The notes beneath the pieces were generated by a model. That model was not told where the DNA came from and searched no databases. It saw only the letters and a program-made list of their open reading frames with translations. Positions 21,298 to 56,324 of a stretch of 64,000 nucleotides of DNA are shown here, in pieces (the first letter of the stretch is position 1; each line of letters begins with the position of its first letter). The stretch is taken from positions 153,514,001-153,578,000 of the forward strand of contig CM059431.1 in assembly GCA_030390025.1 (NCBI GenBank), given 5' to 3'. The position numbers and the translations under genes are program-made. The DNA comes from Squalus acanthias. Lineage: Eukaryota.

Positions 21298-21333
21298 TGA
21301 TGTCACTCGGGGGTTTCCCTCTGCTCTAAATAA
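21298..21333 (+). promoter_or_regulatory. Putative core promoter of GPCR gene A: CRE-like TGATGTCA, kB-type GGGGTTTCCC, TATA-like TAAATAA
   Basis: Motifs at 21298-21305, 21310-21319 and 21327-21333; TATA-like box about 80 nt before ATG 21413, similar to the spacing in gene B. Confidence 0.45.
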
Positions 21334-21483
21334 GGAGCTCCCTTCACTGTGTGACCTCACACAATCAGCGCGTTGCCTCCAGCACAAAGACCACCAGCCT
21401 CTCACAGAAGGGATGTCGTGTGTTCGAGGATCTCTATGGAAAGTATTCTTGAACAGTGGCAGTGAACAACAATACTTTGGAAT

Positions 21484-22272
21484 AACAGCAGCAAAATGTT
21501 GAAAAAACTCAGCAGGTCAGGCAGCATCCGTGGAGAGAGCAAATGTTCCCGTTTCAGGTCTGTGACCCTTCGTCAGAACTGAAAACGTTTACAGCTGCAA
21601 CAGATTTTAAGCAGGTGCAGAGGCAGGGAAATTGGGGAGGGGTGGAGCAAAGAACAAAAGGGATTGTCTGTGATAGTGTGGAAGGCAGGAGTGCTTAAAT
21701 GTTGCAAATGGGGATGGGAGAAACATCAACAGCTGCCGCCTGAAAAAAATAGGGGCGGAGGTTATGGTCCGAAATTGCGGAACTCAATGTTGAGTCCAGA
21801 ATGCTGTAAAGTGCCGAATAGAAAGATAAAGTGCTGTTTCTCGCGGTTAAATTGATTCTATGGAACACTGTAAGAAGCCGAGGACAGAGAGGTCAGAGTT
21901 GGAGGGGAGCAGCGAATTAAAGACACGGGGGCCGGAAGCTCGGGGTCACACTTACGGATTGAACATAAGTCTTCCGCAAAGCAATCACCCAATCTGCGTT
22001 TGTTCTCCGCAATGCAGATGAGACCGCATCGTGAGCAGCGAATACAGTATACTAAATTGTAAGAAGTACAAGTAAATCGCTGTTTCACCTGTAAGGGGTG
22101 TTTGGGGCTCTGGAGAGTGGGAAGGGAGGAGGTAAAAGTGCAGGTGTTGCATCTCCTGCACTTGCATGGGAAGGTGCCGTGGGAGGGGAGGGGTTGTTGG
22201 GGGTGATTGAGGAATGGACCAGGGTGTTGTGGAGGGTGCGATTTCTTCGGAATGCTGAAAGGGGAAGGGAGG
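21484..22272 (-). mobile_element. Penelope-like element 3' part (degenerate GIY-YIG endonuclease plus terminal repeat)
   Basis: Peptide GTFPCKCRRCNTC...FTCTSYNLVYCIRCSRCGLICIAENKRRLGD; hammerhead-bearing terminal sequence at 21484-21585. Confidence 0.88.
21543..21581 (-). ncRNA. Minimal type I hammerhead ribozyme motif (Penelope-type, possibly degenerate)
   Basis: Minus strand reads gttCTGACGAagggtcacagacctGAAAcgggaac; the cleavage-site region deviates from consensus. Confidence 0.55.
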
Positions 22273-22754
22273 TTATACAAAACATTTACTATCCCCTTTT
22301 TTCTGCTGTCAGTATTCCTTGTAAGTATCTCTATCCAGTGATTAATTCAATACTGTGTTATTATTCTTGCTATTTACCGTGGCATACTCAGTTATTAATT
22401 GTATTCTGTGTTTCAAGTTGCTACATCTTTGTTAATGCAAGAGTTGTTGTTTAAAATGACTGGCACATCCTCGCCACTGTATGTGTTCCTGGTAAGTCTC
22501 TGTATCCCGCTATTAATTCTATAAATCATGTTTAACTGTGTTTCTCTCCTTGTCATTCTCCATCCCATCCGCACTGCTGTCTGCTGTTGATTCTGAGGGT
22601 GATACAGTGTTACCAAGATTTAATTGTTCTATATTCAACTCAAGAAAGGATATTGACGAGACTCTTTGCTTAACGAATTTCGTTCTGCTATCTACACTGA
22701 ACATTTGTAACAGATCAGAGGAATGTTTTCTTGTTTGAGGAGACTTTTTAACTA

Positions 22755-22890
22755 ATGGCGAATGATTATCGGCCTGAAACGTTAACTCTCTCTCTCTCTC
22801 TACAGATGCTGCCTGGCCTGCTGAGTATTTAAAACATTTCCTGTTCTTATTTCAGATTTCCAGCATCCACAGTAATTGGATTTTGTTTTC
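22755..22890 (+). mobile_element. Degenerate Penelope terminal-repeat remnant in the gene A intron
   Basis: cctgaaacgttaactct...gatgctgcctggcctgctgagt is homologous to the reverse complement of 21500-21560. Confidence 0.6.
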
Positions 22891-24200
22891 AGTGAATGCT
22901 CGGCATGGTTACTGACACAGAGTCACAGGAACAAATCCTGGCAGATCAAAAACACATTTTTAAATGTCTGAAATATCCGCAAATCATTCAGTTCCAGTCA
23001 GTGTCTCCTTTCCCACCAACTCTAGATCTGCATTATTGATACTGTTTCTGATGGTTAGAATAGGATTACAAGGATAACTTCAGTTCTCAAAAAACGTTCA
23101 CTCAGCCATATTTCAATGCGTTTATTTCCAATATTTGTTTTGAATTTACAATTGGCTGCCGTGCCGGTCTGTCACAGTTCAATGGATCTCTCAGTGAGAC
23201 CCAGAGTGATTCTCTATTGCCTCCTGCTGTACTGCAGGATAAACAATCCAAGCTGACTGTAACTGAAGTACTGAGGATAAGAAAATCCTTTCATATTTTC
23301 TCGACGAATATTCTCTGCACAAGTTGGAAACAAACAGATGAAAAAGTACGAGGATATTTATCTTCCATTGGTTTTCAGATACTTTACGAAAGCGTTCAGC
23401 GGCTCGCTGCCTGTGGGATGAGTCGCTTAATTATGACTAATAAATGCATTGAGTGGGATATTACCTGGTCAATCATAACTATGTATTTTAATTCAGATTC
23501 CATTCTCTGCAATTTTATTTGGAAAATCTTCCTTTTAATGAGCCACAATTTGAGTATTTCAACAAAACTATGGAACGCTCACTCTTCAAACACTTCTTAA
23601 TTCCCAGTTATCTTTATAACTGCAGTGCCCTTGTATTTAACATCGTAGTACTTGCATATTACCGCCGTACATTTTAAATCCAATTGCCTGTAATTATTGC
23701 ATACCATGATTGCAGTTTCTGTATTTTACCGTTGCATTCACTTTCAGTTCTAAATATAATGGATATTCTAACCAGGAGCAGGAATCCAAGCGGCATTTGC
23801 CCCTCCCGAACACAGGGGCACTGAAGCGAATTACACCGCTCCAAATGCTGGCTGATCCCGGGACACGAAGGCTTCCTGAGATGTTCTGGACCTTTGTGTC
23901 CCTGGTACCTCGGGCGATGTTTTTGTCTGCGGGGCTAAATATAGATCTACCATTTAATCTCTCATTGATCAAACATCTAATACTTTCATGTTGTATTTAT
24001 CCACGTTTCATTTCTTAATTCCACAATGTATTCGAGATTACTCTTACAACAAACCCTGTATTCAGCACCACGGGCAATCTACTTAGATTTTATCATTGAA
24101 TGTCGCTAAGGCGTTGCTGAAGTCTCCCCGAATTCATTCAAACTGCTGCTCTTTTCCTAGCCTGATGTATAATTTCCCTGTTTCTTTCCCTTCCTCTCAG

Positions 24201-25102
24201 TGAACTTAGTGACGATTGTAATCTTGTCTCGGGGAAAGTGCGGTCTCTCCAAATGTGTCACTCGCTACCTGGTGGCCATGGCAGCGGCGGATCTACTGGT
24301 CGTTATCCTCGACCTGATATTGAGGCAGATTCCGATTGTTTTTAGTGAACAGTTTCGTTTCGTGGAGTCCATCCCCGTGTGTAATATCCACGCCGTCCTG
24401 CTTTATGCGGCCACAGACTGTTCTGTCTGGTTCACCGTCACTTTCACTTTTGATCGATTTGTGGCCATTTGCCGCCAGAAGCTGAAAACTAAATATTGCA
24501 CCGAGAAAACGGCGGCTGTGGTTCTGGGAACAGTGACTGTGCTGAGCGGTTTGAAGAACATGTTCTGGTATTTTATGTTCACAGATCAATATTATCTTTC
24601 GAACCTCCCCTGGTTTTGTTATGTAACAACAGATGTTACGTTTTCACTGGTCTGGGGAGCAATTGAGTTCCTTCATTATATTCTCACCCCGGGGGTCCCA
24701 TTTGTTGTGATTCTTCTGCTCAATGCTCTCACCATCAGCCACATTTTAGTGTCCAGCAGAGCCCGCAGGAGACTCCGGGGTCCCAGCAGTGGGGAGAATC
24801 CCAGAGACCCAGAGATGGAGAGTCGCAGGAAATCCATCATTTTACTGCTTCTAATCTCCGGCAACTTCATCCTGTTATGGACAGTATTTATGGTGTATTA
24901 TATATTGCAGCGGATAAGTTATTTGTGGACTGTGTCTATAATTCTGCCCCATCTTGTAAGGGAAATAGGATTGATGCTGCAGATGCTCAGTTGCTGCACA
25001 AACACTGGGATTTATGCCGTCACCCAGACTAAGTTCCGAGAGCAGTTGAAGAATGTGGGGAAATATCCATTTACTCTAATTGTAAAATTCATTAAAGGAT
25101 GA
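24201..25102 (+). CDS. Exon 2 of GPR139/GPR142-like GPCR gene A (end of TM1 through TM7 and C-terminus; open 300 codons)
   Basis: NLVTIVILSRGKCGLSK, YLVAMAAADLL (TM2), FTFDRFVAIC (DRY-like), RRKSIILL (TM6), SCCTNTGIYAVTQTKFRE (NPxxY-like and helix 8); polypyrimidine-AG acceptor at 24200. Confidence 0.9.
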
Positions 25103-25195
25103 TGTGAAGCGGAAACTTTGCAGCCTGAGAGCTCCCTGTGCCTAATATTGTGGCGAGCCGTTTTCCACGGGCCGGACCGCCAGCCGCGGTGAAAT

Positions 25196-25785
25196 TCACA
25201 TAACAAAGATGGCGGCTCCGGCGTCCCGCACAAAGATGGCGGCCCCGGTGGCCCGCACAAAGATGGTGGCCTCAGCGTTCCGCACAAAGATGGCGGCCCC
25301 GGTGGCCCGCACAAAAATGGTGGCCTCAGCATCCCGCACAAGATGGCGGCCCTGGCGCACGTCACAAAGAAGGTAGCCTCGGCGCCCCACACTTGATGCG
25401 GGCCCTGGCGCTCCCCACAAAGATGGCGGCTCCGGCCCCCAGCACAAAGATGGCGGCCCCGGCGCGCAGCACAAAGGTGCCGGCCCCGGCGCCCAGCAAA
25501 GAGATGGCTGCCCCGGCACCACGCACAATGCAGGCGCCCCGTGGTCCCGAGCAATTATGGTGGTTCCGGTGCCCCGCACAAAAATGTTGGAACCAATGTC
25601 CCGCACAAATATTGCGGCTCCGGTGCCCCGCAAAAAGATATCGGCTCCGTTGCCCCGCACAAAGATAGCGACTCCGACGCCCCTAACAAAAATGCCGCCT
25701 CCGGCATCCCGCTAAAAAATGGCGGCTCCGGCAACCCGCTCAAAGATGACAGCTCTGGGGCCCCATAACAAAGATGGCGGCTCTG
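25196..25785. repeat. 27-bp GC-rich minisatellite (caaagatggcggccccggtggcccgca) containing the YY1 consensus
   Basis: About 20 tandem units starting ~95 bp after the gene A stop codon. Confidence 0.88.
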
Positions 25786-25837
25786 GTTACAACAATATAA
25801 ATCTTTATAAATCATTATGATCATTAAGAAATCATTG

Positions 25838-26243
25838 TTTGATTCATTCTTGGAATATGGACGTCGCAGGCAAGGCCAGCATTTATTGTCCATCCTTAAC
25901 TGCCCTGGAGAAGGTGTTGGTGAGCCGCCTCATACAACTGAGTGGCTTGTTAGGCCATTTCAGAGGGTCGTCAATAGTCAAACACATTGCTGTGGGTTTT
26001 AAGTCACATTTTGTCCAAAATGGGTAACGACAGCAGCTTCCCTTCCCTGAAGGACATTTATGAATCAAATGTGCTGTTCCCGACAATCCGGTTTCATTGT
26101 CACCATTACTGACACTGACTTTTTATTCCAGATTTGTTTTATTAATATAATTTAAATTCCCTAGCAGTGGGATTTGAACTCAGGATTATTCGTCCAGGCA
26201 TCTGGTTTACTAGTCGAGCAACATAACCACTATGCTACTGTAC
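25838..26243 (-). mobile_element. tRNA-derived SINE, same family as 1230-1632
   Basis: Reverse complement begins gtacagtagcatagtggttatgttgctcgactagt and ends caataaatgctggccttgcc. Confidence 0.75.
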
Positions 26244-26310
26244 CCTTCAAATGTATCGACGTTCATTCATTGCCATTGGGTCAAAAGCCTGAAATTCCGT
26301 ACGTAATAGT

Positions 26311-29300
26311 ATAGAAACATAGAAAATAGGTGCAGGAGTAGACCATTCGGTCCTTCGAGCCTGCGCCGCTATTCAATGCGTTCATGGCTGAACATGATAC
26401 CTCAGTACCCCATTCCTGCTTTCTCGCCATACCCCTTCATCCCCCTAGTTGTGAGTATTATATCTAAATCCCTTTTGAATATATTTAGCGAACTGGCCTC
26501 AGCAACCTTCTGTGGTAGAGAATTCCACAGATTCACCACTCTCTCTTGGTGAAGAAGTTCCTCCTCATCTCAATCTTAAATGGCTTCCCCTTTATCCTTA
26601 GACTGTGACCCCTGGTTTTAGTTTTCCCTAACATTGGAAACATTCTGCCCGCATCTAATTTGTCTAAACCAGTCAGGATTTTAAACGTCTCTATAAGATC
26701 CCCCCTCATTCTTCTGAACTCCAGAGGATACAAGTTCAGTTGATCCAATCTTTCTTGATATGTCAGTCTGGCCATCCCAGGAATCAATCTAGTGAACCTT
26801 CGTTGCACTCCCTCAACAGCAAGAATGTCCTTCCTCAAGTTAGGAGACCAAAACTGCACACAATACTCCAGGTGTGGCCTCACCAATGCCCTGTACAACT
26901 GTAGCATCACCTCCCTACTCCTGTACTCAAATCCCCTTGCTATGAAGGCCATCATGCCATTTGCTTTCTTGACTGCCTGCTGCACTTGCCTTCCCACCTT
27001 CAGTGACTGATGTAACATGACGCCCAGGTCTCATTGCACCTCCCCTTTCCCTAATCTGCCACCATTCAGGTAATAGTCTGCCTCCCTATGTTTACCAACA
27101 AAGTGGATAACCTCACATTTATCCACATTGTACTTCATCTGCCATACATGTGCCCATTCACCCAACCTGTCCAAGTCACTCTGTAGCCTCCTAGCATCCT
27201 CCTCATTGTTCACACTGCCTCCCAATTTAGTGTCATCCGCAAATTTGGAGATATTACAATTAATCCCTTCGTCCAAATCATTAATATATAATGTAAACAG
27301 CTGGGGCCCCAGCACCGTACCCTGCGTTACCCCGCTGGTCACTGCCTGCCATTCTGAAAAGTACTAATTTACTCCTACTCTTTGTTTCCTGTGTGCCAAC
27401 CAGTTCTCAATCCACATCAACACATAACCCCCAATCCCATGTGCTTTAACTTTGCACACCAATCTCTTGTGTGGGACCTTGTCGAAGGCCTTCTGAAAGT
27501 CCAAATACACCACATCTACTGGTTCCCCCCCGTCCACCCTATTGGAAACACCCTCAAAAAATTCCAGAAGATTTGTCAAGCATGATTTCCCTTTCACAAA
27601 TCCATGCTGACTTGGACCTATCATGTCGCCACTTTCCAAATGGTCTGTTATGACATCTTTAATAATTGATTCCATCATTTTACCCACCACTGATGTCAGG
27701 CTGACCGGTCTATAATTCCCTGCTTTCTCCCTCCCTCCTTTTTTAAAAAGAGGGATTACATTAGCCACCCTCCAATCCTTCGGAACTGATCCAGAGTCTA
27801 AGGAGTGTTGGAAAATGATCGTCAATGCATCCACTATTTCCAGGGCCACCTCCTGAAGTACTCTGGGATGCAGACCATCAGGCCCTGGGGATTTATCAGC
27901 CTTCAGTCCCATCAATTTCCCCAACACCTTTTCCCGACTGATAAGGATTTCCCTCAGCTCCTCCTTCTTACCAGATCCTTTGATCTCTTTTATTTCCGGA
28001 AGTTTGTTTGTGTCCTCCACAGTAAACACCGAACCAAAGTACTTGTTCAATTGATCTTCCATTTATTTGTTCCCCATTATGACTTCCCCTGTTTCTGACT
28101 GCAGGGGACCTACGTTTGTTTTTACTAACCTCTTTCTTTTTACATATTTATAGAAGCTTTTGCAGTCCGTTTTAATGTTCACCGCAAGCTTCCTTTCATA
28201 TTTTAATTTCGCTGCCCTACTCAAACCCTTCGTCCTCCTCTGTTGAGTTTTAAAGTTCTCCCAGTCCCCGGGTTTGCTGCTACTTCTGGCCAATTTGTAT
28301 GCCACTTCCTTGCTTTTAATACTATCCCTGATTTCCCTTGTTAGCCATAGTTGAGCCACCTTCCATTTTTTATTTTTACGCCAGACAGGGATGTACAATT
28401 GCTGTAGTTCATCTATGCGATCTCAAAATGTCTGCCATTGCCCTTCCACTGATAACCCGTTAAATATCGCTTGCCAATCTAACCTCGCCAATTCACGCCT
28501 CATACCCTCAAAGTTGCCCTTATTTAAGTTCTGGACCATGGTCTCTGAATTAACTGTTTCCTTCTCCATCCTAATGTAGAACTCCAGCATACTATGGTCA
28601 CTCTTCCACAAGGGGCCTCGCACCACAAATTGCTGATTAGTCCTTCCTCATTACACAACACCCAGTCCAGGATGGCCTCCCCTCTAGTTGGTTCCTCAGC
28701 ATATTGGTGTAGGAAACCATCCCTTAAACACTCCAGGAAATCCTACTCCACCGTATTGCTTCCAGTTTGAGTTTTCCAATCTATATGCATATTAAAGTCA
28801 ACCATGATAACTGCTGCGCCTTTTTTGCATGCACCTCTGATTTCCTGTTTCCTACCCTCCCCCACCTCACTACTACTGTTTGGAGGTGTGTACACAACCC
28901 CCACTAACGTTTTCAGCCCTTTGGTGTTCTGCAGCTCAACCCATATTGATTCCACATCCTCCAAGCTAATGTCCTTCCTAACGATTGCATTAATCTCCTT
29001 TTTAACCAGCAATGCTACCCCACCACCTTTTCCTTTTATTCTATCCTTCCTGAATGTAGAATACCCCTGGATATTCAGTTCGCAGCCTTGATTGTTCTGG
29101 AGCCACGTCTCTGTAATCCCAATCACATCCTATCCGTTAACCTCAATTTGCACAGTCAATTCATCCACCTTATTACGGATACTTCTTGCATTTAGACACA
29201 TAGCCTTTAGGCTTGTTTTATTAACACCCTTTGTCCTTTTAGACTTATGATTTAGTATGGCCCTATGTCTTTCTTGCCTTTGTTTACTCGGATTTCCCTT

Positions 29301-29545
29301 ATTGTTTCTCACCGTTCTAACATTTGTTTCTGACTGCATATTACTTCCCCCTGTTTCTCTACATAGGTTCCCATTCCCCTGCCATATTAGTTTAAATCAT
29401 CCCGAACTGCCTTAGCAAATATTACCCCGAGGACATCGGTTCGAGTCCTGCCCAAGTGCAGACCGTCCCTTTTGTACAGGTCCCACTTCCCCCAGAACTG
29501 GTTCCAATGCCTCAGGTATTTGAATCCCTCCCTCCTGCACCACTG
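26311..29545 (-). mobile_element. CR1 LINE (ORF1 C-terminus plus ORF2 with few stops), inserted into the 3' end of another LINE (26245-26310 and 29546-29695)
   Basis: Consecutive minus ORFs with GITETW, YRPVSLTSVVGK, YLDFQKAFDKVPH, KFADDTKLG; tail at 26311-26330. Confidence 0.93.
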
Positions 29546-31544: not shown

Positions 31545-31627
31545 TATATCAGTATTACATTGAGTGTTGTGGGGAGTAACAGCCCAGTGTGTGGCATATA
31601 TCAGATTGATACAGTGAGTGGTGTGGG

Positions 31628-33740: not shown

Positions 33741-33744
33741 GCAA

Positions 33745-35297: not shown

Positions 35298-38200
35298 TTA
35301 GAAGATAGGAGCAAGAGTAGGCCATTCGGACCCTCGAGCCTGCTCCGTCATTTAATGAGATCATGGCTGATCATCCAAACTCAGTACACTGTCCCTGCTT
35401 TCTCCCCATATCCCGTGATCCCTTTAGCCTTAAGCAATATATCTATCTCATTCTTGAATATATTTAATGAATTGGCCTTAACTGCCTTCTGTGGTAAAGA
35501 ATTCCACAGGTTCACCACTCTCTGGGTGAAGAAATTCCTCCTCATCACACCCCCGCTATCGGGAACAGCTTCCAGCATCTAGTCTGTCTAGTCCTGTTAG
35601 AATTTTATAAGTTTCAATGAGATCACCCTCTCATTCTTCTAAACTCTAGCCAATGTAAGCCTAATCGATCCAATCTCTCTTCATACGTCATTCCTGCCAT
35701 CCCAGGTATCAGTCTGGTAAATCTTCGCTGCACTCCCTCCATGGCAAGAACATCCTTCTCAGATAAGGCGACTAAAAGTGCACACATTACTCAAGGTATA
35801 GTCTCACCAAGGCCTTGTACAACTGCAACACGACATCCTTGTTCCTGTACTCGAATCCTCTCGCTATGAAGGCCAACATACCATTTGACTTGTTAACCGC
35901 CTGTTGCACCAGCATGTTTACCTTCAGCGACTGGTGCACAAGGGCTCCCATATCTCGTTTCACTTCCCCTTTACTCAATCTATTGCCGTTCAGATCATAA
36001 TCTGTCTTCTTGTTTTTGCCACCAAAGTGGATATCCTCGCATTTATCCACATTATACTGCATCTGCCATGCATCTGCCCAATCACCCAACCTGTCCAAAT
36101 CATCCTGGAAGTGATCTGCATTCTCCTCACAGCACACACGCCCACCCAGCTTTGTGTCATCTGCAAACTTAGAGATATTACATCTAGTTCCCTCGACTAG
36201 ATCATTAATATATATTGTGAATAGCTGGGGTCCTAGCACCGATCCCTGCTGTACCCCACTAGTCACTGCTTGCCACTCGGAAAAAGACCCGTTTATTCCA
36301 ACTCTTTGCTTCCTGTCTGCCTTCCAGTTCTCTATCCAAATCAGTACCTTACCCCAATCCCATGTGCATTAACTTTGCACGTTAATCTCTTATGCGGGAT
36401 CTCATCGAAAGCCTTCTGAAAGTCCAAATACACCACATCCACTGGTTCTCTCTTATCCATTGGAACAGTTACATCATCAAAAAAGTACAGCAGATTAGTC
36501 AGGAATTATATACCTTTTGTAAATCCATGTTGACTTTGTCCGATCCTGTCATTGTTTTCCAAGTGCTCTGTTGTTTCATCTTTTATAATGGACTCTAGCA
36601 TTTAGCCCATTACCGATGTCAGGCTTACAATTCTCTATAATTCTCCATTATTTCTCTACCACCTTTTTTAAATACTAGTTTTACATTAGCTTCCATCCAA
36701 TCCATGTGAACTGTTCCAGAGTCTATAGAATTTTGAAAGATGAACAACAATGCATCTACTATTACTAGGGCCACTTCCTTAATTACCCTAGGGTGTAGAT
36801 TATCAGGCCCTGGGATTTATCGGACTTCGATCCCGTCAATTTCCCTTACAGCATTTCCCTACAAATACTGATTTCATTCAATTCCTCCCTCTCATTAGAC
36901 CCTATGTTCCCCGAAATCTCTGGGAGTTTACTTGTATCCTCCTTTGTGCAGACAGAACCAAAGTATATATTTAATTGGTCTTCCATTTCTTTGTTCCCCA
37001 TTATAAATTCCCCTGATTCTGACTGCAAGGGACCTACGGCTTGACTTCACAAATCTTTTTCGCTTCACATATCTATAGAAGCTTTTACAGCCAGTTTTTC
37101 TGTTCCCTGCAAGCTTACTCTCATTTTCTATTTCCCCCCTCTTAATTAATACCTTTGTCCTCCTTTGCTGAATACTAAACTGCTCCGAATCCTCAGGTCT
37201 GCTGCATTTTCTGTCCAATTTATATGTCCTCTGCTTGGCTCTTATGCTATCCCTAATTTCCCTTGTTAGTCACGATTGTGTCCCACGCTCCCAAATCCAT
37301 CCTAGCCAACTCGTGCCTCATCCCATCGTAGTTCCCTTTATTTAAATTCAGGACCATAGTCTCTGATTCAACTACTTCATTCACCATCTTAATGAAGAAT
37401 TCTATCATATTATGATCGCTCCCCCCCAAGGGGCCTCGCAAAACAAGATTGCAAATTAATACTTTCTCATCACATAATACCCAGTCTAAGATGGCCTGAT
37501 CTCAAGTTGGTTCCTCGACATATTGGTCCAGGAAACCATCCCGTATACACTCTAGGAATTCCTCCTCCACAGTATTGTTACTAATTTGGTTAGCCCAAAC
37601 TGTATGTAGATTAAATTCACCCATGATAACTGTTGTGCCCTTATTGCACACGTCTCTAATTCCCGTGTAATGCCATCCGCAAACTCAGCATTACTGTTTG
37701 GGGGTCTATATACAACTCCCACTAACTTTTTCTGCCAATTGATATTGCTCAGGTCTACCCATACAGATTCCACATCATCAAAGCTAATACCCTTCCTTAC
37801 TTTTGTGTTAATCTCCTTTTTAACCAGCAATGCTACACCACCTCCTTTTCGTTTTTGCCTGTGCTTCCTAAATATTGAATACCCCTGGATGTGGAATTCC
37901 CTGCCTTGGTCACCTGGAGCAATGCCTCCGTAATCCCAATTATATCATAAGAACATAAGAACATAAGAAATAGGAGCAGGAGTAGGCCAATCGGCCCCTC
38001 GAGCCTGCTCCGCCATTCAATAAGATCATGGCTGATCTGATCCTAACCGCCAATCTACTATCTATCACAGAACCATCTCCTGCATCTAACAGAATTGCAC
38101 ACACAAAATAGGAGCAGAATCAGGCTACACAGTCCCTGGGCCCGCTCCACTACCCACAGGGCCATGACCGATCCGAACCTAGACTCATGTCCGAATTCCT

Positions 38201-41050
38201 GCCCGCTCCCCGTAACCCTTAATGCCCTTTACTTCTAGGAAACTGTCTATTTCTGTTTTAAATTTAATTAATGTTGTAGCTTCTACAGCTTTTTGTGGCA
38301 GCATATTCCATGGACCTACCACCCTCTGAGTGAAGTAGTTCCTCCTCATCTCAGTTTTGAAAGAGCAGCCCCTTATTCTAAGACTATGTCCCCTAGTTCT
38401 CGTCTCACCCGTCATCGGGAACATCCTCCCCGCATCCACCCGATCCAACCCCTTCACAATCTTATATGTTTCAATAAGATCGCCTCTCATTCTTCTGAAC
38501 TCCAATGAGTAGAGTCCCAATCTACCCAACCTCTCCTCATATGACCACCCCCTCATCCCCGGGATTAACCGAGTGAACCTTTTTTGCACTGCCTCGAGAG
38601 CAAGGATGTCTTTCCTTAAGTAAGGACACCAAAACTGTATGCAGTATTCCAGGTGCGGTCTCACCAATACCTTGTACAACTGAAGCAATACCTCCCTATT
38701 TTTATATTCTATCCCCCTAGCAATGAAAGCCAACATTCCATTTGCCTTCTTAATCACTTGCTGCACCTGCATACTATCCTTTTGAGTTTCGTGCACCAGG
38801 ACCCCCAGATCCCTTTGCACTTCAGTACTCTCCAGTTTCTTGCCATTAAGATAATAAATTGCTCTAGGGTTTTTCCTGCCAAAGTGCATCACCTCACACT
38901 TTCCAGTGTTGTATTCCATCTGCCAAATCTCTGCCCACTTACTTAGCCTGTCTATGTCTCCTTGCAGGTTTTTTATGTCCTCCTCACTCACTACTTTCCC
39001 TCCCATCTTAGTATCATCTGCAAATTTTGATATGTTACACTTGGTCCCTTCCTCCAAATCGTTAATATAGATTGTAAAGAGTTGGGGACCCAGCACTGAC
39101 CCCTGTGGAACACCACTAGTTACTGATTGCCAGTCTGAGAATGAACCATTTATCCCAACTCTTTGCTTTCTGTTAGATAGCCAATCCTCTATCCATGCCA
39201 GAATATTACCCCCAATCCCGTGATTTTTTACCTTAAGCAATAATCTTTTGTGTGGCACCTTGTCAAATGCCTTTTGGAAGTCTAAATACACTACGTCCAC
39301 TGGTTCTCCTTTATCCACTCTATATGTTACTTCCTCAAAGAACTCCAGCAAATTTGTCAAACATGACTTCCCCTTCGTAAAACCATGCTGACTTTGTCCT
39401 ATTAAATTATGATTATCCAAATGTCCTGTTACTGTTTCCTTAATAATGGACTCCAAAATTTTACCTACCACAGATGTTAGGCTAACCGGTCTATAGTTAC
39501 CAGCCTTCTGTCTACTGCCCTTTTTAAATCATATCCGCTTACATCTATTTGCGCAGCTAATTCATCCAACTTATTACAAATGCTCCTCGCATTAAGCCAC
39601 AAACACTTCAGGCTTATTTTTTTAACACTGTAAGTCCTTTTACAATTATTTACTGTACCCCTGTTTGATTTACACACTTGATTTCTCTGCCTTCCACTTT
39701 TGCTTTTCTCCTTCCTGTCTTTTGCTTCTATCCTTGCTTCCCTTTCCTCTGTTTCCCTGCACAGGTTCCCAACCCCCTGCCTTTTCAGTTTAAACCCTCC
39801 ACAACAACACTAGCAATCACTGGGACATCGGTCGCGGTCCTGCCCTGGTGAAAACCGTCCAGTTTGTACTTGTCCCAACTCCACCAGAACGGGTTCCAAT
39901 GTCCCAGGAATTTGAATTACTTCCCCTTGCACAATTCCTCTAGCCATGTATTCATCTGAAATATCCCTCTATTTCTACTCTGACTTGCACGTGGCAAAGG
40001 TAGCAATCCTGAGATTACTACCTTTGAGGTCCTATTTTTTTATTTACCTCCTAACTCCCTATATTCAGCTTTTAGGACCTTATCCCGTTTTTTCCTATAT
40101 AATTGGTACCTATACGCACCATGACAAGTGGCTGTTCACCCTTCCCCTCCAGAATGCTCTGCAGCCGCTCCGAGACATCCTTGGCCCTTGCACCAGGGAG
40201 GCAACATACCATTCTGGAGTCTCGTTTGCGGCCGCAGAAACGCCTATCCATTCCCCTTGCAATAGGATCCCCTATCGCTATAGCTCTCCCGCTCTTTTTC
40301 CTCCCGTCCTGTGCAGCAGAACCACCCATGGTGAACAGGAAGTTTGCTGCTGCTGCCTTCCCCCGATAAGCCATCTCCCTCAACTATTTCCAAAGTGGTA
40401 TATCTGTTTCAGAGCGGGATGTCCACAGGGGAACCCTGCACTACCTCCCTGCGCCTACTACTCTGCCTGGTCGTCACCCATTCTCTTCCTGCCTGCGCAG
40501 CCTTTTCTCTGCGGTGTGTCCAACACCCTAAACGTGCTATCCATGATGTCCTCAGCATCGCGAATGCTCCAGTATGCATCCATTCGCAGCTCCAGCGCCG
40601 CAATGCGGTCTGCCAGTAGCTGCAGCTGGATACACTTCTCGCACACATGTTCAACATGGACACAGGAAGTGTCCCTGATTTCCCACATAGTGCAGGAGGA
40701 GCATGCCACGGGGCTGAGCTGTGCTGCCATGACTTTTCCTTTCATTAATTTAAATTAACTCAAATCAATACCACAAATTACACTACAATTAAATGATATA
40801 CTCAAGGGCCCCTGTATACTAGCACTCCCTGCTACACAACAGAGACCTTTGAAATATAACCACAAAAATTAGGACCTACGATAGTTTATAAGCTATTAAC
40901 CTTAACTGTCAAACTGCAGAATAGTATAAATACTCACCTGGCCGTACTCACCCAATCAGCTGCTTCCTCTTGTCCGCGTCACTTTTGATTTGTGACGTGG
41001 CTCTGGAACGTTGCCGCCGGTCTGTGAGAATGGTCAGCCTCTGCAAAAAA
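35298..41050 (-). mobile_element. Near full-length degenerate CR1 LINE (5'UTR, ORF1, ORF2) interrupted by a younger CR1
   Basis: ORF1 MAAQLSPVACSSCTMWE...CEKC near 40730, RAIAIGD and CCLPGA; ORF2 APE resumes across the insertion; RT motifs at 35400-36900. Confidence 0.9.
37950..39527 (-). mobile_element. Young 5'-truncated CR1 with an uninterrupted RT C-terminal ORF (428 aa, 38185-39471)
   Basis: No stops; canonical QHGF, YLDFQKAFDKVPH, GVPQGSVLGP, FADD; TSD atcata at 37944-37949 and 39528-39533. Confidence 0.93.
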
Positions 41051-43839: not shown

Positions 43840-44195
43840 AGAAAGACTTGCATTTATATAGCGCCTTTCATGAACTCAGCAGGTCCCAGACCACTTTATA
43901 GCCAATTAATACTTTTGAAGTGTAATCAATGTTGTAATGTAGGAAATGCGGCAGCTAATTTCCGAAAAGCCAGCTCCCATGGATAGCAATGATATAATGA
44001 CCTGATAAACTGTTTTTTAGTGCTATCGGTTGAGAGGTAACTATTGGCCAGGACTCCGGGGATGTTTTACATCCAAAAGCCGGCAGCTCCAACAGAGCAG
44101 CGCTCCCCAGTACTATCCATCTAACAGTGCAGCGCTACCTCAGTATTCCCTCTCCGACAGTGCAACGCTCCCTCAGTACTGCCCCTCCGACAGTG
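43840..44195 (-). mobile_element. Deu-domain SINE, internally deleted, with about 3 units of the 33-bp repeat
   Basis: gaaagacttgcatttatatagcgcc tail and ctccctcagtactgcccctccgacagtg units in reverse orientation. Confidence 0.8.
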
Positions 44196-44990
44196 TCCGC
44201 CTAACCTCAAAAGTACCATCGTTCGCAGCAGATTACCCATCTTTCAGGAGAACAGCAACCACGACACCACACAACCCTGCCACGGCAACCTCTGCAAGAC
44301 ATGCCAAATCATGGACACAGATACCATCATCACACGTGAGGACACTACCCACCAGGTACATGGTACATACTCATGTGACTCGGCCAACGTTGTCTACCTG
44401 ATACGTTGCAGTAAAGGATGCTCCAGAGCATGGTACATCGGCGAGACCATGCAGACACTGAGACAACGTATGAACGGACACCGTGCAACAATCGCCAGGC
44501 AGGAGGGTTGCCTCCCAGTCGGGGAACACTTCAGCAGTCAGGGGCATTCAGCCTCGGATCTGCGGGTAAGCGTTCTCCAAGGCGGCCTTCGGGATACACG
44601 ACAGCGCAAAATCATAGAGCAGAAACTGATAGCCAAGTTCCGCACTCATGAGGATGGCCTCAATCGCGATATCGGGTTCATGTCACGATACAGAACGTGA
44701 CTTGACATCATGGCCGGTCTTTCCAGGTTTTGTTTTAAAAAGACTAATGGAGAGGATATGCAGCCAGCAGGTGTTTTGACACGTTGGACCCCCTGGGACA
44801 CATCTCATTGTCTTGGTGTGTCTTTGATGTAGGGAAAGATTTGAATAGATTTTGCTGTGTTTATATTGTGAATTCTGGGAGATTCGCTCACAGCTACCTT
44901 ACCTGAAGAAGGAGCGAACAGCTCCGAAAGCTTGTAAAATTAAATAAATCTGTTGGACTATAACCTGGTGTTGTGCGACTTCTGATTTTC
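44196..44990 (+). mobile_element. Penelope-like element 3' part: GIY-YIG endonuclease ORF to 44700 plus hammerhead-bearing terminal repeat
   Basis: PCHGNLCKTC...CDSANVVYLIRCSKGCSRAWYIGETMQTLRQRMNGHR; cCTGAAGAaggagcgaacagctccGAAAgcttg at ~44900-44937. Confidence 0.9.
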
Positions 44991-48230: not shown

Positions 48231-48819
48231 CTGCTTAACAGGCCGAGGCTACATATTAAAATTAAAGCTATAGAACGATAAACCAATACAGTATAACATT
48301 AGCACACTTTAGGCAGTCTGATTAACTATTTCCCAACAATACCCCACCTTTGGCATTAGATTCCTGAAGGCTAAACCTAAACAAATCTCATCAGCATCAT
48401 ATATCTATCTCGATCTATTCTCTTCTGCAGATCTCTACCCATTTGCTTTACACATTACTCTCTACAGAGCCACATTGAGAACTTCTTGTCGTGCTGACTC
48501 AAGCGTGACTGGCCATGTCTTGGACCCATTCTTCACGGAATCTTCATCATGCACATCGCATGCTGGTCTCGCATTCACGGGCAACACTTCACTTCAGCAC
48601 ACACAGCGATAACCCAAGATCAGGCAGCTGGAGGCATCCGATACAAGCCATCCCAGCCATTTCTGGCTAACTACACAAAGCTGGGAGAGGGGGTAGGGGT
48701 TCTGTCGATGTTTGGATAGAATCTCCCTCTGCATGGTTTCGATGTTTCTTGTAGTGGCAAAGCTATCAAGTACATTCCTCTAATTGCTCAGTACCAGAAA
48801 GGACATAACCCTGAAAGCG

Positions 48820-50262
48820 GACCTGAGCAAGATGAGGAGCGGCGGCATAAAAGCAGCGGGAGAAAAGATCCTCGGGCAGAGCAGACCTGAGCAGCAGCGG
48901 CATATTTATTCGGGTAATTCAAAAACGACTACACATTATCAAGGAGTGACGTCACAGGACAGCAGGTAGGTGATTGGTTGGTGAGTTTTACAGTTTATTT
49001 TGCTCTCAGCCAGCGAAGGGGGTTCAACGTATAACTTGAACTAGATTTAGTAAGTATTTAAAAACTAAATCATGAGCTAAGATAATTGAATGCATAAACA
49101 TTAATTAATTAAATAACTAAAACGAGGTTATATTGTGATGGCAGTGCGGGTGATATGGCGCAACTGCACCATGTGGTATGTTTGTGGCGAGAATCGCGAT
49201 TCCTGATGACCACGTTTGCAGTTAGTGCCTGCACCTCGAGGAACTTCTTCTCAGAGTTGTTGAAAAGGAGACCGAGGTGCAGACATTGCGAGGCATCAGG
49301 GCGGGGGAGAGTTACCTGGACACTTTGATCCAGGTGGCAGTCACACCCCTTCGGTTAGATAGTGGAACAGGCCTGGTTAGTGGTCAGGGACAGGAGGGTG
49401 TGACTGCGACTCAGGCAGGTAAGGTGACCCCAGGTGCAGTGATGGAGGAGCCTCGGCTTAGTACGTATTCAGCAGGTATGAGGTTCTTGCTGCCTGTGTT
49501 GATGAGGGCAAAATCTGCAGTATGGATGAGCAAACTGACCACGGCACCGTGGCATAGGAGGCCATTCCAGTGGGACGAGTGAAAATGAATGTAGTTGTGG
49601 TAGAGGACAGCATAGTCAGGGGGAGAAATATTGTTTTCTGCAGCCAGGACCGGTGTTCCGAAGGCTCTGTTGCCTGTCAGGTTTAAGGATATCTCCCCGC
49701 AGCTGGAGAAACATTTGTAGTGGGAGGGGGAGGATCCAGTGGTCGCATTCCACGTCGGAACCACAGACATCCGTCGAACTAGGAATGAGGTTCTTCTGAG
49801 AGTTTGAGGAGCGAGCATACAATTTAAAACGCAGGACCTCAAAAGTAACAATTTCTGGATTGTGAACTCATCCACGTGCAAATTGCCACCGTGATAAGCA
49901 GAACTGAGAGTTAAATGTTTTGCTGGAAGAATGGTTTGGGAGGAAGAGGTTTCGATTCATGGGCACTGGCACCAGTACTGGAGAATGAGTGAGCTGCTCC
50001 ATATTGAAGGGGCTCCATTAAACCGGGCTGGGACATGTATCCTGTTGAATCTAATAACTTGACTGTTCATAGGGCTTTCAACTAAAATTCAAGGCATTGG
50101 AGCAGTGTATCGATTTGGATAAAGATAAGCAGAGTGTGACAGGAAAGAACAGAGAGCTTAATGGTAATAGTGCATCAGCCAATAAGGAGAAGCAGGGAAT
50201 AATGGTGAGAAAGCTAAAAGTAAAGGCTGTTTATCTGAATGCACGAAGCATTCGTAACAAGG
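48820..50262 (+). mobile_element. Old CR1 5' part (5'UTR, decayed ORF1, start of ORF2)
   Basis: Degenerate Cys motif near 49138-49240, EDSIVRG-like SGNH motif, KAVYLNARSIRNK. Confidence 0.75.
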
Positions 50263-50399
50263 GATCTATAAGAAATGAAACCAGACTAAATACAAACGAA
50301 ACAGGAACGCAGAACATAGGAAGGAACAAACTAAGGGAGGTCATAGACTCTGGGTAATAAATAGAGTTATAGAAATAGGGAGTAAAAAGATGGTTGAAA

Positions 50400-53322
50400 A
50401 TAAAGTGACAAGAACTGCTATTAAACATGAGTTAAACTCTCTGTAGAGCAATACAATATGTCCTAACAAAACAGGGGAACTGGAGGCAATATTATGTTGC
50501 GATGAACCAGATATTGTAGGGAATACTTTGCCATGGCTAGAGAAAGCAGGACTGGGAATTAAACATTGCAGGGCATAACATATTTAGAAAAGAAAGAATG
50601 GGCAAAATAGGAAGTGGGTTAGCTCTGCTTATTAGAGATAACATAATGGCAGTAAAAACATGACAGAGTTATCAGTTAGACAGTAATAGAATACACGTGG
50701 ATAGAGATAAAAGATAATGAAAGTTCAATCACACTAGTAGAGGTAGTCTATAGACCACTAATGTTGGAAGAAGAAGAGATGAAGGAAGAAATAAGGAAAA
50801 AAGTTTGAAAAATTAGTTAAAAAAAAATATTAATGGGAAATTTAAACTGCCCCGAAATTAATTGTGCAGAAGAGGTAGGTGAAGCGGATAGGGGAATGGA
50901 GTTCCGACTATGTTCAAATGATTCCTTTCTAACCCAATATGTAAGAAGCTGAAAAGGGAGGATTAGCGACTGGATCGAGTAATGGGGAATGAACCAGAAC
51001 AGATAAGAGAAGAAAAAGTGGGGCAGTATCTAGGTAACAGTGACCGTAATATAATAATCTTTCAGCTAATAATTGAGAAGGACATAAGTATGATGACGAT
51101 CAAGGTAACAGATTGGAGAAAATGCGATTGTGAGGGGCTGATAATAGAACTTGGAAAATAAAATGTACAGCGATATAGGCAAGCAATGATGTAGAACAAC
51201 AATGGGAAACATTTAAAACGGTATTCAGCAGAGTGCAGGAAAATATATTCTACTAAAAATCAAGAACAAGCTAAACACTAATGAGACGCCATGGATGAAT
51301 AAAGGCAAACGAAAAAAAATTGAGGATAAAAAAAGAGGCAAACACTAAGAAAATGGACAATAGGTGAGATAATGGCAAGGAAGAATACAAAGAGATAGGA
51401 GAGAAGTCAAACAAAGTAGGAATGCAAAGGGGAACTATGCGATTAAATTTGCAAGGAACATAAAGCAATGTAATAAAATATTCTGCAGGCACATAAATAA
51501 AAAAGGAAATTCGAGATGGGAATAGGGCCGTTAAGGAACGGCCAGTATTAAATCACAGGCAGCGATAGCGAAATGCCAGAAATATTATGTACTTACTTTA
51601 TTTCTGTATTTACCAGGGAGACGGTCAGGTAGACGTGACATCTGAAGATGAGATTAGAAATGATATAACCGCATTTAAAATTTAAAAGGAGAAATATTAG
51701 ATCAACTAATCAAACTCAAACAGGATAAATACGCTGCTCCAGCCGAATTACATCCACGCATTTTAAAGAAATCTAGGGAAGCGATAGAAGAGGCACTATT
51801 ACACATATTTAATAATTCGTTCGAAAAAGGTATAGTGCAAAAGGACTGGTGGATTGCTAACGTAATACCTATATTTAAGAAGGGATATGGAACATGTCCG
51901 TGGGACTATAGTTAATTCAGCTTAACATCGGTGGAAGGAAAATTAATGGAATCCCTACTAAAGGAAAAAATAGAAGAACATCTCGAAGAGCAAAAATCTA
52001 ATCATGAATAGTCAGCATGCGTTTCAAAAGAAAATGTCTTGTTTGAGCACACTATTTGAATTCTTTGAAGAGGTAACATAGAGCGTAGACAAGCTTTGAG
52101 TAGTTGACGTAATTTATCAAGATTTCAAAAAAGTCTTCGATAAAGAACTACATGACAGACTGATGAAAAATGTCAGAGAATGCAGAGTCAGGTGACAAGT
52201 AGCAGAATGGATAGCGAGCTGGTTTCAAGACAGAAATCAGTGAATAGGGGTAAAGATTAGCTATACGTAGCGGCAGAATGTGGAAAGTGGGTTCACACAA
52301 TGTTCAGTGCATGGGACCATGTTTGTTCATAATTTATGTTAACAATTTAGACTTTGGAATCAAAAACTCAATTTCTAAATTGTCGGATGTCACCAAATTG
52401 GTGGGGGTGGGGGGCTGTGATAGTCAGTACTAAGGAGGACTGCAACAAATTACAAGAAGACATTAATAAACTTGCAGAATGGGCATATAATTGGCAAATG
52501 AATTTCAACACAGAAAAATGGGAGGTATTACATTTTGGTCAGTAAAATAAGGAGATCACATATTACTTGGGAAATAAGAATCTAAATGGGATAGAAGAGC
52601 ATAGCGATCTTGGATTACACATACACGAATCACTGAAACTAGCAACACTGGTTTTCAAAAGCTAGCGACGCATAAAAAAGCAAACCCAGCACTAGGGTTT
52701 ATTTCGAGAAGGATATCATTGAAAAGTAGAGAATTATGCTAAACCTGTATCTAACCTTAGTAATACCACACTTGGAGAACACTGTACAATGCTGGACTCC
52801 ATATTATTAAAAAGATTTACAGGCACTGGAGAGGGTGCAAAAAAGATTTACAAGGATGATAGAAGAATTGCGAGGATATACCTATCAGGAAAGTATGAAC
52901 AGGCTGGGTCTCTTTTCTATTGAAAAGAGAAGGCTGAGAGGTGACCTAATAGAGGGCTTTAAAATATGGAAAGGTTTTGATATAGATTAGAATCAGAGAG
53001 AATGTTTCCACTGGTGGGGAAGAGCAAAACTTAAGGCCGTCAATATAAGATAGTCACCAAGAAATCAAATACGGAATTCATAAGAAAGTTCTTACCAATA
53101 GAATGTGAGGATGTGAACCTCGCTATCACAGGGAGTGGTTCTAGCAAACAGTATAGACACCTTTAAAGGGAGGCTAGATAAGAAAAGGAGGGAGAAGGGA
53201 ATATAGGTTTGTGCTGATAGAGTTAGATCAGGAAAGATGAAAGGAGGCTCGAGTGGAGCTTAAACGCCGACATGGACTGGTTGGGCCGAATGGTCTGTTT
53301 CTGTGCTGTATCTCCTAAGTAA
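50400..53322 (+). mobile_element. Old AT-rich CR1 ORF2 with 3' tail, heavily mutated
   Basis: Recognisable APE and RT remnants (LQEDINKLAEWAYNWQMNFNTEKWEVLHFG); 3' hairpin ttgggccgaatggtctgtttctgtgctgta. Confidence 0.82.
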
Positions 53323-55610
53323 ACCGCTTTCATCTCCAAGAGAAAGCAACCAATTAACTATCTTAACTACACTTACCTGACTTGCACTAGATTGCGAATT
53401 GATGCCAGGATGAGATTTTTGGCGAGTTGTGCCCAGGTGATTTACGTTAAGACGGAACGGGACAGAATAGAAAGAAGCAGACTGCTGCTATTATTTGAGG
53501 GATCTGGAACTAACGACTATAGATTAAAAAATGGACTGAAGAGATTTAGAACGGATGTTCGGAGACTTCTCTTTAAATGGAGAGTGGTGAAGCTGTGAAA
53601 TTAACAGAGGCAGAAATTATGTCAATATTGGAGACTAATTGTACAGATGGATGAACAAAAATAGGTTGAAGTGATGTTGAGACCGGGCGGATAAAGTGAT
53701 TGGAACAATTTGATCGGCTGAAGGGTAAACGCTGAGAAGGTCTGCTTGGGTTAAACAGTTGTTTCCCCTCTCATAACATTCCACCATTTTGTTGACCAGT
53801 TGAGATTTTCAGTAAATATCTGTGAACAAAGATGTCTAATGTCACATTGACGAGACAAGTTCCTACTGTCTCCATCATTAGATACTGATCAGGAGACAGA
53901 GCCCCGTTCTATTGGTCCAGGAGACAATGGGGGGGCGGAGTCTGATGGGGAGTCCAGCGCCTGCAACATTCAAACCAAGATTACAGATTTACAAATAAGC
54001 ATGATTTCAAAACCCTTCGATATGTCCAAACTAAAGGAATGTCTATCTGTTAATTAAACTGAGCGTCTCCTTCCAGTAGCTGCTGTGTGAGGCAGTTAAC
54101 GCTGACGCACACATGTTCTACTCCACTGTTGAAGCTCAATCATGACGGTTCTCTTTGAATCTTGAGCGGGCAGGGCGCTGTTTTAGCGGGAATCGATTAT
54201 GTTCACACGGGGAAAGAAGCAGACATCAAACACCCGGCACAAATTGGGAAAATATGTCCTGAAACCTGCTCATTTTCACAAGAACAATCCGCTTTTGTCC
54301 CAAGGGAAAAAATGGCATTCTAAAACGGAACACGGGCTGTAATTGAGCTCTAGTTAGGACAGGAAGCTATGCTTTAATTCTTAATTTTATTAACCAATAT
54401 CAGAATCAATGTCCAAGGAGATTTCACCATCTTCACCAACTCTTGCCTGAATTTGGTTTGTGTCGCTGCATAAATGCAGGTGTTTGTACAGGAACTCAAA
54501 TACATGAGCATATATCCACTTTCAGCCAGGATGTAAGCAGGGTTTTCAAACTCACCTTTGTAATAAACGGACAGACTGTCAGTGATGAAGCTAATGGCAG
54601 ATGTGAACCACAACAGTATAAAACTGCCCGATACAGTGAACAGTAAAATGATGGATTTCCTCCGGCTCTCCATCTCTGGATCGCTCTGATTCTCATTGCA
54701 GTGACCCCGGAGTGCCCTGCGAGCCCTACTGCTTACTACAATTCGTCTGACTGTCAAACAATTAAACAATAATATCAAAGCAACAGCAAACCATGGAACT
54801 AAAATAATTTGAATGCGGAAATAGGCTATGGCTGCAGGCGATGATTAAAAGGCTTCATTGGCGCGGCATCCCCAGGAAACATTGTTAATGATTCGTTGAG
54901 ATTCATAAGAGAAAGCAAAGGGGATATTCTCTATACAGGCCAGCACAAGGACTGTTGTTAAAACTGCTGCCGCAGTTCTCACTGTGCAATACTTTGCTTT
55001 AAACTTCTGACAACATATAGTTACAAATCGGTCAAAAGTGAAAAAGACTGTAAACCACACCGACATATCCAGGGTGACGGTATTGATGTAATGAATGGAC
55101 TTACACACGGCAGTGTAGGACAGGAATGAATGCGGAAAGTGGTTACAGAAAATCTGAAACACCAGTATATGGAAGATGATGACCAGTGGATCTGCGGTCG
55201 CCATGGCCACCATGAAGACCGAGATACATTTGGAAAGGCCACAATTTCCTCTGGAGAGAATCAGGATTGTCAGTAGGTTCGCTGTAAGGAAGAGGCAGAA
55301 GAGGTCAGTAACGGGGATACTCAGATAAATCTCACAGCATATTGTGGGGAAATGCTCAGATGTGTCCCTACTTGGCGTCACGTACACTGATTTGTTGCCA
55401 TATAGGCGAGTGCTGAGGAGATTTGATTTAAAAGGAAAGAAACATTGAAGATTCAGTATGGAGTGACTGAAAATCCGAGTCCCTTCCACCATACTTCAGA
55501 CAGTGGCTAAATATAATTTCGCAGCAATTACTGGAAATATATGGATTCAATAAAATATTCAGCTGTTGGGTGTAGGTAGCTGCAGTCCGAGCAATTATCA
55601 ACTTAAAATA

Positions 55611-55840
55611 TGAGAAGTCGCACAACACCAGGTTATAGTCCAACAGTTTTATTTGAAATCACAAGCTTTCGGAGCGCTGCTCCTTCGTCAGGTGAAGTAA
55701 AGGGCCTTGACTTCACCTGACGAAGGAGCAGCGCTCCGAAAGCTTGTGCTTTCCAATAAAACTGTTGGACTATCACCTGGTGTTGTGCGACTTCTCACAT
55801 TTGTCCACCCCAGTCCAACACCGGCATCTCCACATCATGG
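55611..55840. mobile_element. Palindromic Penelope terminal-repeat insertion with two opposed hammerhead ribozyme motifs
   Basis: 88-bp inverted arms 55611-55698 and 55710-55797; each carries cacCTGACGAaggagcagcgctccGAAAgcttgtg; flanked by direct repeat caacttaaaata (55599-55610, 55841-55852). Confidence 0.9.
55714..55748 (+). ncRNA. Minimal type I hammerhead ribozyme (mirror copy on minus strand at ~55660-55694)
   Basis: Stem I cac/gtg, CUGACGA core, stem II ggagc/gctcc, GAAA, palindromic AAGCTT in place of stem III. Confidence 0.8.
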
Positions 55841-56317
55841 CAACTTAAAATAGACAGGGAACCACGGTACAAATGAAGTGATTACTAGGGACACTAAGCA
55901 ACACATTCTGTACTGGACTATGTACTGTTGGAGGGGCCGGGGAATCACTCTCGCCTCAGTGAAGAGAGGGAATTTGAGTGCCCCGTGCCCAAGATCTACC
56001 GGACAGAATAGCGCCTAACCGGCAGGGCGAACAGGTAGGATTCCCGCTGATATTCACCAAATTATGCCGGTGGATAAGTGACTCTGCAATGAGACCCATC
56101 ACGGAATCAGTTACATAATCATTAACAGTGAGATCGTCATCAGCTATTAAACAACAGGATGCATTGACTTACCGAGAACACCAAAGACAACGAGAAAATG
56201 ATAGTATATGTCCTTTATCTGTAGAATTATTGGCCTTGCCATTTTCAGAAGGCTGTGTGACTTCTGTCCTGCTTTACGGTTCCGACTGCGTGTATCTGAG
56301 ATCCGTAAATGCTCCCC

Positions 56318-56324
56318 CTTTATA
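56318..56324 (-). promoter_or_regulatory. TATA box of GPCR gene B
   Basis: TATAAAG followed by a G run, 76 nt upstream of the ATG at 56242. Confidence 0.6.

Follow-up and report, generated by a model that had tools for sequence, protein, structure and literature searches.

Two broken class A GPCR genes of Squalus acanthias belong to a large receptor family of cartilaginous fishes

The window, a 64,000-nucleotide stretch of the Squalus acanthias genome, contains two convergent class A GPCR genes, gene A on the forward strand and gene B on the reverse strand, about 29.3 kb apart, in accordance with the original prediction. Both genes are interrupted by a phase-1 GT-AG intron at the identical TM1 codon, and both contain all four of the family motifs previously quoted for them. 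A tblastn search found no third exon 2 within the window. The features of the locus are as follows:

20615..21142, no strand: minisatellite array with a 51-bp period; 185 nt separate it from the gene A TATA-like box
21327..21332, + strand: putative TATA-like box of gene A (TAAATA), called from sequence only
21436..21483, + strand: 5' part of gene A exon 1 with the probable start ATG, assigned by its register with homologue N-termini
21484..22274, - strand: high-copy insertion of 791 nt that splits gene A exon 1 and carries a decayed GIY-YIG-like frame
22275..22320, + strand: 3' part of gene A exon 1, encoding the start of TM1, with a phase-1 donor at 22321
22321..24200, + strand: gene A intron, 1880 nt
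22437..22497, + strand: second copy of the gene A exon-1 end, with its own donor at 22492
24201..25102, + strand: gene A exon 2, an open frame of 299 codons from the end of TM1 to helix 8
25203..25787, no strand: 27-bp GC-rich array, directly 3' of the gene A stop codon
54374..55281, - strand: gene B exon 2, with the natural stop at 54376-54374
55282..56172, - strand: gene B intron, 891 nt, phase 1
56173..56242, - strand: gene B coding exon 1, 70 nt, with the ATG at 56242
56319..56324, - strand: putative TATA box of gene B (TATAAA), 76 nt before the ATG, likewise recognised by its letters alone
56646..59980, no strand: satellite array with a 26-bp period; 322 nt separate it from the gene B TATA box

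Exon 1 of gene A is decayed. Specifically, its 5' part contains an in-frame TGA at 21463-21465, four of its nine conserved positions are broken, and it is split by the 791-nt insertion, which we take to be a Penelope-like element. The insertion has very high summed depth in contigs of a related organism and scores 0.95 in Atlas, where 27% of the top cluster carries PF01541; against Pfam itself it gives no match. The second copy of the exon-1 end is more decayed than the first and has no in-frame ATG. No ATG or splice acceptor that could rescue gene A was found within the insertion, and no alternative exon 1 was found elsewhere within the window. Exon 2 is open and normal, with 4 of 157 conserved columns broken versus a clade median of 5. 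Gene B carries a single internal TAA (54847-54845), at the end of extracellular loop 2. Its decay is moderate: 8 of 91 conserved columns are broken versus a clade median of 3.5, exon 2 shows changes of P5.50 and L2.51, and three of seven conserved positions at the exon-1 end are broken. The proposal that both genes were recently disabled is too simple: in gene A a decayed exon 1 is joined to a pristine exon 2.

The argument that the two genes share a promoter is not supported. Stretches anchored on the TATA boxes are no more similar than shuffled ones, of which 394 in 1000 score as well, and comparing 400 nt of upstream sequence (32 of 500 shuffles as good) yields no shared promoter motif above shuffles. 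A common TATA spacing of 76-80 nt had been proposed; the 76 nt of gene B stands, but the 80 nt of gene A was measured from an out-of-frame ATG at 21413, and the ATG in register with homologues, at 21436, lies 103 nt from the TATA-like box. Nor do the promoters share a satellite, the 51-bp and 26-bp arrays being unrelated (765 of 1000 shuffles as good). A satellite array adjoins each promoter, both copies in the window are broken, gene A resembles a mosaic in which a fresh exon 2 follows an old 5' part, and many contigs of a related organism, whose summed depth is not taken as copy number, span promoter, intron and exon 2. These observations would fit a largely non-adaptive amplification, in which a cassette flanked by satellites and lying in repeat-rich DNA was multiplied and homogenised by unequal crossover and conversion, few copies matter and the variation of the outer loops is drift.

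The encoded proteins are class A (rhodopsin-like) GPCRs with seven helices plus helix 8. They match Pfam 7tm_1 with E-values of 2.8e-20 and 1.3e-18 (73.3 and 67.8 bits; cut-off, 30.5) and match no other Pfam family, including Srw, which excludes them from the vertebrate OR, TAAR, V1R/ORA, V2R and T2R families. A structure model of an intact relative (P0004; pLDDT 90.4) superimposes on NTSR1 with a Z of 27.6 and an rmsd of 3.5 over 296 aligned residues, but with many class A ties, and fold searches do not place the family. D3.49, R3.50, W6.48, N7.49 and Y7.53 are nearly invariant in the family, while position 3.51 is mostly F, 6.50 mostly T, V, L or M, and 7.50 mostly T.

The best 60 solved-structure matches comprise GPR139 along with receptors for peptides, chemokines or lipids, and GPR139 is the best match for the family profile (E-value 1e-29; next, 5e-23). 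The family resembles GPR139 and GPR142 (PDB 7VUG, 9M42) in its class A fold, its retained W6.48 and a non-canonical NPxxY, and its genes, like that of GPR139, have two exons; it differs from both in its dozens of copies, its TM3/ECL2 cysteine pair, its DRF and a third inner loop that is long and conserved, and in rarely having P6.50. That genes A and B might simply be GPR139/GPR142-type receptors, responding to aromatic amino acids or to a small number of endogenous peptides, draws on the profile match, but it is largely refuted and in our estimate very improbable. Identity to human GPR139 is ~25-28% (about 70 identities, counted in the printed alignment), compared with 70-96% among GPR139 orthologues across vertebrates (PMC7318219). 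Among six agonist-pocket residues (E3.32, F3.33, H5x43, W6.48, R6.51 and N7x38), gene A retains two (H and W) and gene B one (W). Furthermore, the catshark has its own GPR139 (81.3% identical to that of mouse) and GPR142 (58.7%), so one-to-one orthology is rejected. The earlier label of GPR139 paralogues applies only in a loose sense: GPR139 is the nearest solved structure by sequence, but unnamed bony-vertebrate receptors are closer relatives.

Database searches returned 2546 matches for gene A and 1569 for gene B; all 120 of the listed matches to A and 119 of the 120 to B are named cartilaginous-fish proteins, the remaining one being unnamed. The family proteins carry the automatic name 'probable GPR139'. 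Counting as distinct any exon-2 core less than 95% alike to the others, we found at least 68 copies in Heptranchias, at least 69 in Heterodontus and at least 49 in Pristiophorus, the three genomes to which the counts refer. In a quick tree, the chondrichthyan members, including one from a chimaera, form one clade (SH-aLRT 96); all 20 of the unlabelled clade members that we looked up are chondrichthyan. The clade contains species-specific groups of 40, 45 and 10 copies (supports 0.85, 0.85 and 0.97), and genes A and B belong to two of its old subfamilies. The predicted lineage expansion is thus borne out, as is a birth-and-death pattern of many copies and lineage-specific clades, with two of two window copies broken. 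Gene conversion can, however, homogenise conserved parts and produce species-specific clades. Each species has dozens of long open frames, spread over many subfamilies with 40-50% mutual identity that persist in sharks, rays and a chimaera, which argues against a non-adaptive origin. A metagenome scan for the family gave 140 pattern matches, none of them confirmed, and we found no paper describing the family.

The sister group of the shark family is probably an unnamed amphibian and sturgeon receptor (SH-aLRT 89 in a quick tree, FastTree 0.96; neither GPR139 nor GPR142 is among the tree members), exemplified by the RefSeq 'probable GPR139' proteins XP_031757816 of Xenopus and XP_069092602 of Pleurodeles. 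The two share an inner-loop motif, D-x-E-M..RR(K/R)S, present in 19 of 21 amphibian and 203 of 233 shark proteins. The amphibian receptor differs in forming one cluster per species, in its invariant pocket, in keeping P6.50 and in a more GPR139-like pocket, with F, W and N of the agonist site retained. Raw identity is slightly higher to a coelacanth receptor (34%, versus 29-33% for the amphibian gene), and coelacanth and teleost orphans, possibly the GPR210A/B of Rinne et al. 2019 (PMC6504862), branch just outside the shark and amphibian group.

Genes A and B are 47.8% identical overall and differ at 30 of 56 fourfold sites. As had been noted, their extracellular loops diverge strongly: 25 of 120 residues (21%) are identical in the outer half, versus 96 of 149 (64%) in the inner half. 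The same contrast recurs in shark paralogue sets, and the proposed conserved inner and variable outer face is supported against an orthologue control. At the protein level, outer-minus-inner identity is -0.19 to -0.27 in six of six shark paralogue sets picked by similarity to A or B, with all intervals below zero, versus +0.07 (CI 0.02 to 0.13) in 21 amphibian orthologues. At equal overall identity, 29 presumed pocket positions score 0.96 in amphibians versus 0.82-0.83 in sharks, and the third inner loop, which varies most in the amphibian proteins (0.59), scores 0.62-0.84 in sharks. Relaxed constraint can also produce variable outer loops. Nevertheless, variation of outer transmembrane and pocket positions alongside a held inner loop speaks against mere drift, and we consider a largely non-adaptive amplification improbable.

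We favor, at a probability of roughly three in four, a diversified ligand-recognition repertoire of some kind. An ancestral jawed-vertebrate gene of the GPR139/GPR142 branch would have remained one gene in amphibians and sturgeon, and in sharks, rays and chimaeras the entire promoter-exon-intron-exon unit would have been duplicated many times, genes A and B being dead or damaged members of that expansion. The constant intracellular face would serve one shared G protein or partner and, since pocket and outer loops vary among copies, each copy would recognise different ligands. These ligands would most likely be external peptides or amino-acid-like molecules, sensed most likely by chemosensory cells of the nose, skin or mouth.

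That the repertoire is chemosensory we rate at slightly below even odds. OR, TAAR, V1R/ORA and V2R genes, on another GPCR branch, likewise show clusters, pseudogenes and a fixed inner and variable outer face. Myosuppressin/FMRFamide receptors, the sister group of GPR139/142, bind aromatic-ended peptides (PMC8557429), and for nematode srw receptors, which are related to them, Thomas and Robertson 2008 (PMC2576165) proposed a role in sensing environmental peptides. The srw genes are also a clustered birth-and-death repertoire of the same broad peptide-receptor branch with species-specific expansions (PMC2576165), but represent an independent protostome expansion without direct orthology. In catshark, V2Rs number only about 32 and ORs 2 (PMC11979771). 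More tentatively, the family may be a chondrichthyan-specific set of chemoreceptors, recruited independently from the GPR139/FMRFamide-receptor branch, larger than the V2R repertoire, with each sensory cell expressing one receptor, and would then make up most of what is missing from the shark chemosensory repertoire. Against a chemosensory role, catshark olfaction is reported to be explained mainly by V2Rs, and the top 50 catshark olfactory genes include no GPCR, V2Rs being absent there too (PMC11979771). Two related-organism runs, guessed to be RNA, have contigs over exon 2 and intron, with no spliced joint among those listed. Searches for GPR139-type labels gave no match in supplements of PMC8455134 (12 of 24 files), PMC11372145 (4 files), PMC10529500 (1), PMC13188829 (8) and PMC11806052 (1), two of which concern shark immune single cells; genes there may be labelled by locus ids, so these blanks carry no weight.

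The sequence evidence for diversification would fit equally with an immune role, in which leukocytes or barrier cells recognise microbial or damage-derived peptides, for which formyl-peptide and Mas-related receptors offer an analogy. Reproductive genes, too, typically turn over fast, and receptors for germ cell, sperm or pheromone signalling might show the same pattern. Most catshark ORs peak outside the nose organs, for example in spleen (PMC11979771), but the nearest characterised relatives have neural or endocrine roles (PMC7318219), and we regard the immune role as rather unlikely. A reproductive role, to which several testis-enriched catshark V2Rs (PMC11979771) lend an analogy, seems less likely still.

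Cartilaginous fishes have been described as GPCR-poor (PMC8455134). Genes A and B are themselves only broken examples of a large family hidden behind an automatic name. In each of three shark genomes its distinct copies number at least 49-69, more than the ~32 V2Rs of catshark (PMC11979771). The tissue in which the family is expressed is a question answerable with existing data, and the single-copy amphibian relative provides a tractable gene for the ancestral ligand.

The window contains two rhodopsin-type GPCR genes in convergent orientation, gene A on the + strand and gene B on the − strand, both of which exceed the Pfam 7tm_1 cut-off; no third copy of the receptor gene was found within the 64-kb window. 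The features discussed here are:

21484–22274: high-copy 791-nt insertion splitting gene A exon 1, with a decayed GIY-YIG-like frame
24201–25102, + strand: exon 2 of GPCR gene A
44125–44697: second GIY-YIG-like frame
55281–54374, − strand: exon 2 of GPCR gene B
56242–56173, − strand: exon 1 of GPCR gene B

Both genes carry all four motifs quoted in the original prediction and, as it stated, a phase-1 intron at the identical TM1 codon. They are 47.8% identical, with 25/120 identical positions in the outer (extracellular) half and 96/149 in the inner (intracellular) half, for segment boundaries that we assigned from motifs. Elsewhere, the window consists largely of minisatellites and of retroelement frames in decay (e.g. 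26536–28422 and 38188–39528).

Protein searches returned 2546 matches for gene A and 1569 for gene B. Among the matches listed, named shark, ray and skate proteins account for 120 of 120 and 119 of 120, respectively, and nearly all of these are auto-named 'probable GPR139'. A 50%-identity library yielded 119 clusters below 1e-30, and all 20 clade members looked up are chondrichthyan, one being a chimaera. Exon-2 cores less than 95% alike number at least 68 in Heptranchias, 69 in Heterodontus and 49 in Pristiophorus. In a tree of 310 of the 392 proteins (those with a 255–345 residue match), calculated without GPR139 and GPR142, A and B fall in separate subfamilies, each holding species-specific groups of up to 40–45 copies with moderate support. 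The distinct copies in each of three sharks and the species-specific groups bear out the predicted lineage expansion: a two-exon unit has multiplied many times, and its copies form old subfamilies and recent blooms, with gene deaths. In 35 of 120 subfamily A homologue models, a repeat of ~14 residues occurs 1–5 times at the N terminus; it includes an in-frame Met and, in many cases, a glycosylation sequon.

The best solved-structure match is human GPR139, which upholds the label 'GPR139-like' to that extent. However, the identity is only ~25–28% by our count, compared with 70–96% among GPR139 orthologues (PMC7318219), and catshark holds a separate GPR139 (81% to mouse) and GPR142 (59% to mouse; PMC13200729 supplement rows), making it very improbable that these are ordinary GPR139-like receptors. 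Two of the six agonist-pocket residues of GPR139 are retained in gene A and one in gene B. Outside sharks, the closest relatives are an unnamed receptor, which forms a single cluster in every one of 20 amphibian entries and in one sturgeon entry, along with orphan receptors of coelacanth and teleosts that may be the GPR210 of PMC6504862. A quick IQ-TREE of 51 proteins, again without GPR139 and GPR142, places the chondrichthyan set in one clade (SH-aLRT 96) with the amphibian–sturgeon group as its sister (SH-aLRT 89). By identity alone, the coelacanth protein is slightly closer to the shark family than the amphibian receptor is, but an inner-loop motif of the family recurs in the amphibian receptor only; our confidence in the sister position is moderate. 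The family alignment (window 24239–24499) also has five conserved intracellular-side cysteines, which may be sites of palmitoylation or metal binding. Two lie in inner loop 1 and are missing in the amphibian relatives; the other three are at the end of TM3 and in inner loop 2. The unnamed receptor, which one search found in amphibians and sturgeon only, is well conserved, with an almost invariant pocket, and is itself worth deorphanising.

The predicted combination of a conserved inner face and a variable outer side holds, and is reversed relative to the amphibian control. Among the 21 amphibian orthologues, conservation is higher in the outer half than in the inner (0.85 vs 0.78; difference +0.07, CI 0.02 to 0.13), while in single-species shark paralogue sets the inner half is better conserved in 6/6 (outer minus inner −0.19 to −0.27, all intervals below 0). 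At 29 presumed pocket positions, for which we assume class A receptor numbering, identity is 0.96 in orthologues and 0.82–0.83 in paralogues, at equal overall identity (0.78–0.80). Judged from sequence, this pattern is what one transducer and many ligands would give. Relaxed constraint or gene conversion could lie behind part of it; drift as the reading of the repertoire is unlikely.

The original prediction held both genes to be recently disabled, and stop codons are indeed present in both. In gene B, a TAA codon falls where extracellular loop 2 ends, and decay is moderate, with 8/91 conserved columns broken, a level reached by 8% of intact relatives. Gene A (21436–25102), in contrast, is a mosaic of an old, doubly broken exon 1 and a pristine exon 2. 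Register with homologues in the 5′ part of its exon 1 starts at ATG 21436, not 21413; a TGA follows at 21463, and then the insertion, which we take to be a 'Penelope'-like element and whose GIY-YIG-like frame was missed by the Pfam search alone. The insertion is probably not fresh, since a related-organism contig spans its left junction at ~87% identity. At the exon-1 end, 4/9 conserved positions are broken, and more than two are broken in 0/85 intact models, which were picked by a motif that itself covers three of the compared columns; exon 2 has 4/157 conserved columns broken, below the median of 5. The mosaic could have arisen if paralogues underwent gene conversion or unequal crossover, or if a first exon has gone unseen. 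The exon-1 end is repeated in tandem at 22437–22497, where the second copy has a donor of its own; related-organism contigs there show joints going back 63 nt in both DNA runs, and they cover this copy about ten times as deeply as the first. Directly after the gene A stop codon, a 27-bp GC-rich array (25203–25787) holds one 10-base motif, presumably a YY1 site, in 7 exact copies.

The equal TATA spacing (76–80 nt) proposed for the two genes falls away once the register-matching ATG is used, as the distances are then 103 nt for gene A and 76 nt for gene B. An alignment of the two promoters is also no better than alignments of shuffled sequence. A satellite array adjoins each promoter, with unrelated units of 51 bp (20615–21142, gene A) and 26 bp (56646–59980, gene B).

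We propose that all copies would share a common G protein and bind a range of ligands, which would probably be peptides or molecules resembling amino acids because the wider receptor branch responds to aromatic-ended peptides (PMC8557429). A similar turnover is seen in the srw receptors of nematodes, which come from this broad branch too and are proposed sensors of environmental peptides (PMC2576165). We tentatively favour a chemosensory role (probability roughly 0.45); an immune role is possible though less probable, and a reproductive role distinctly improbable.

Family proteins already exist in databases as automatic annotations. No description of the shark family was found in the openly accessible literature, and term searches in passages of the shark genome papers PMC11979771, PMC10620051, PMC8455134 and PMC7677710 found no mention of it; PMC8455134 describes cartilaginous fishes as relatively poor in GPCRs. 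These fishes possess a large, real receptor repertoire, apparently undescribed and represented in the window by two broken copies.
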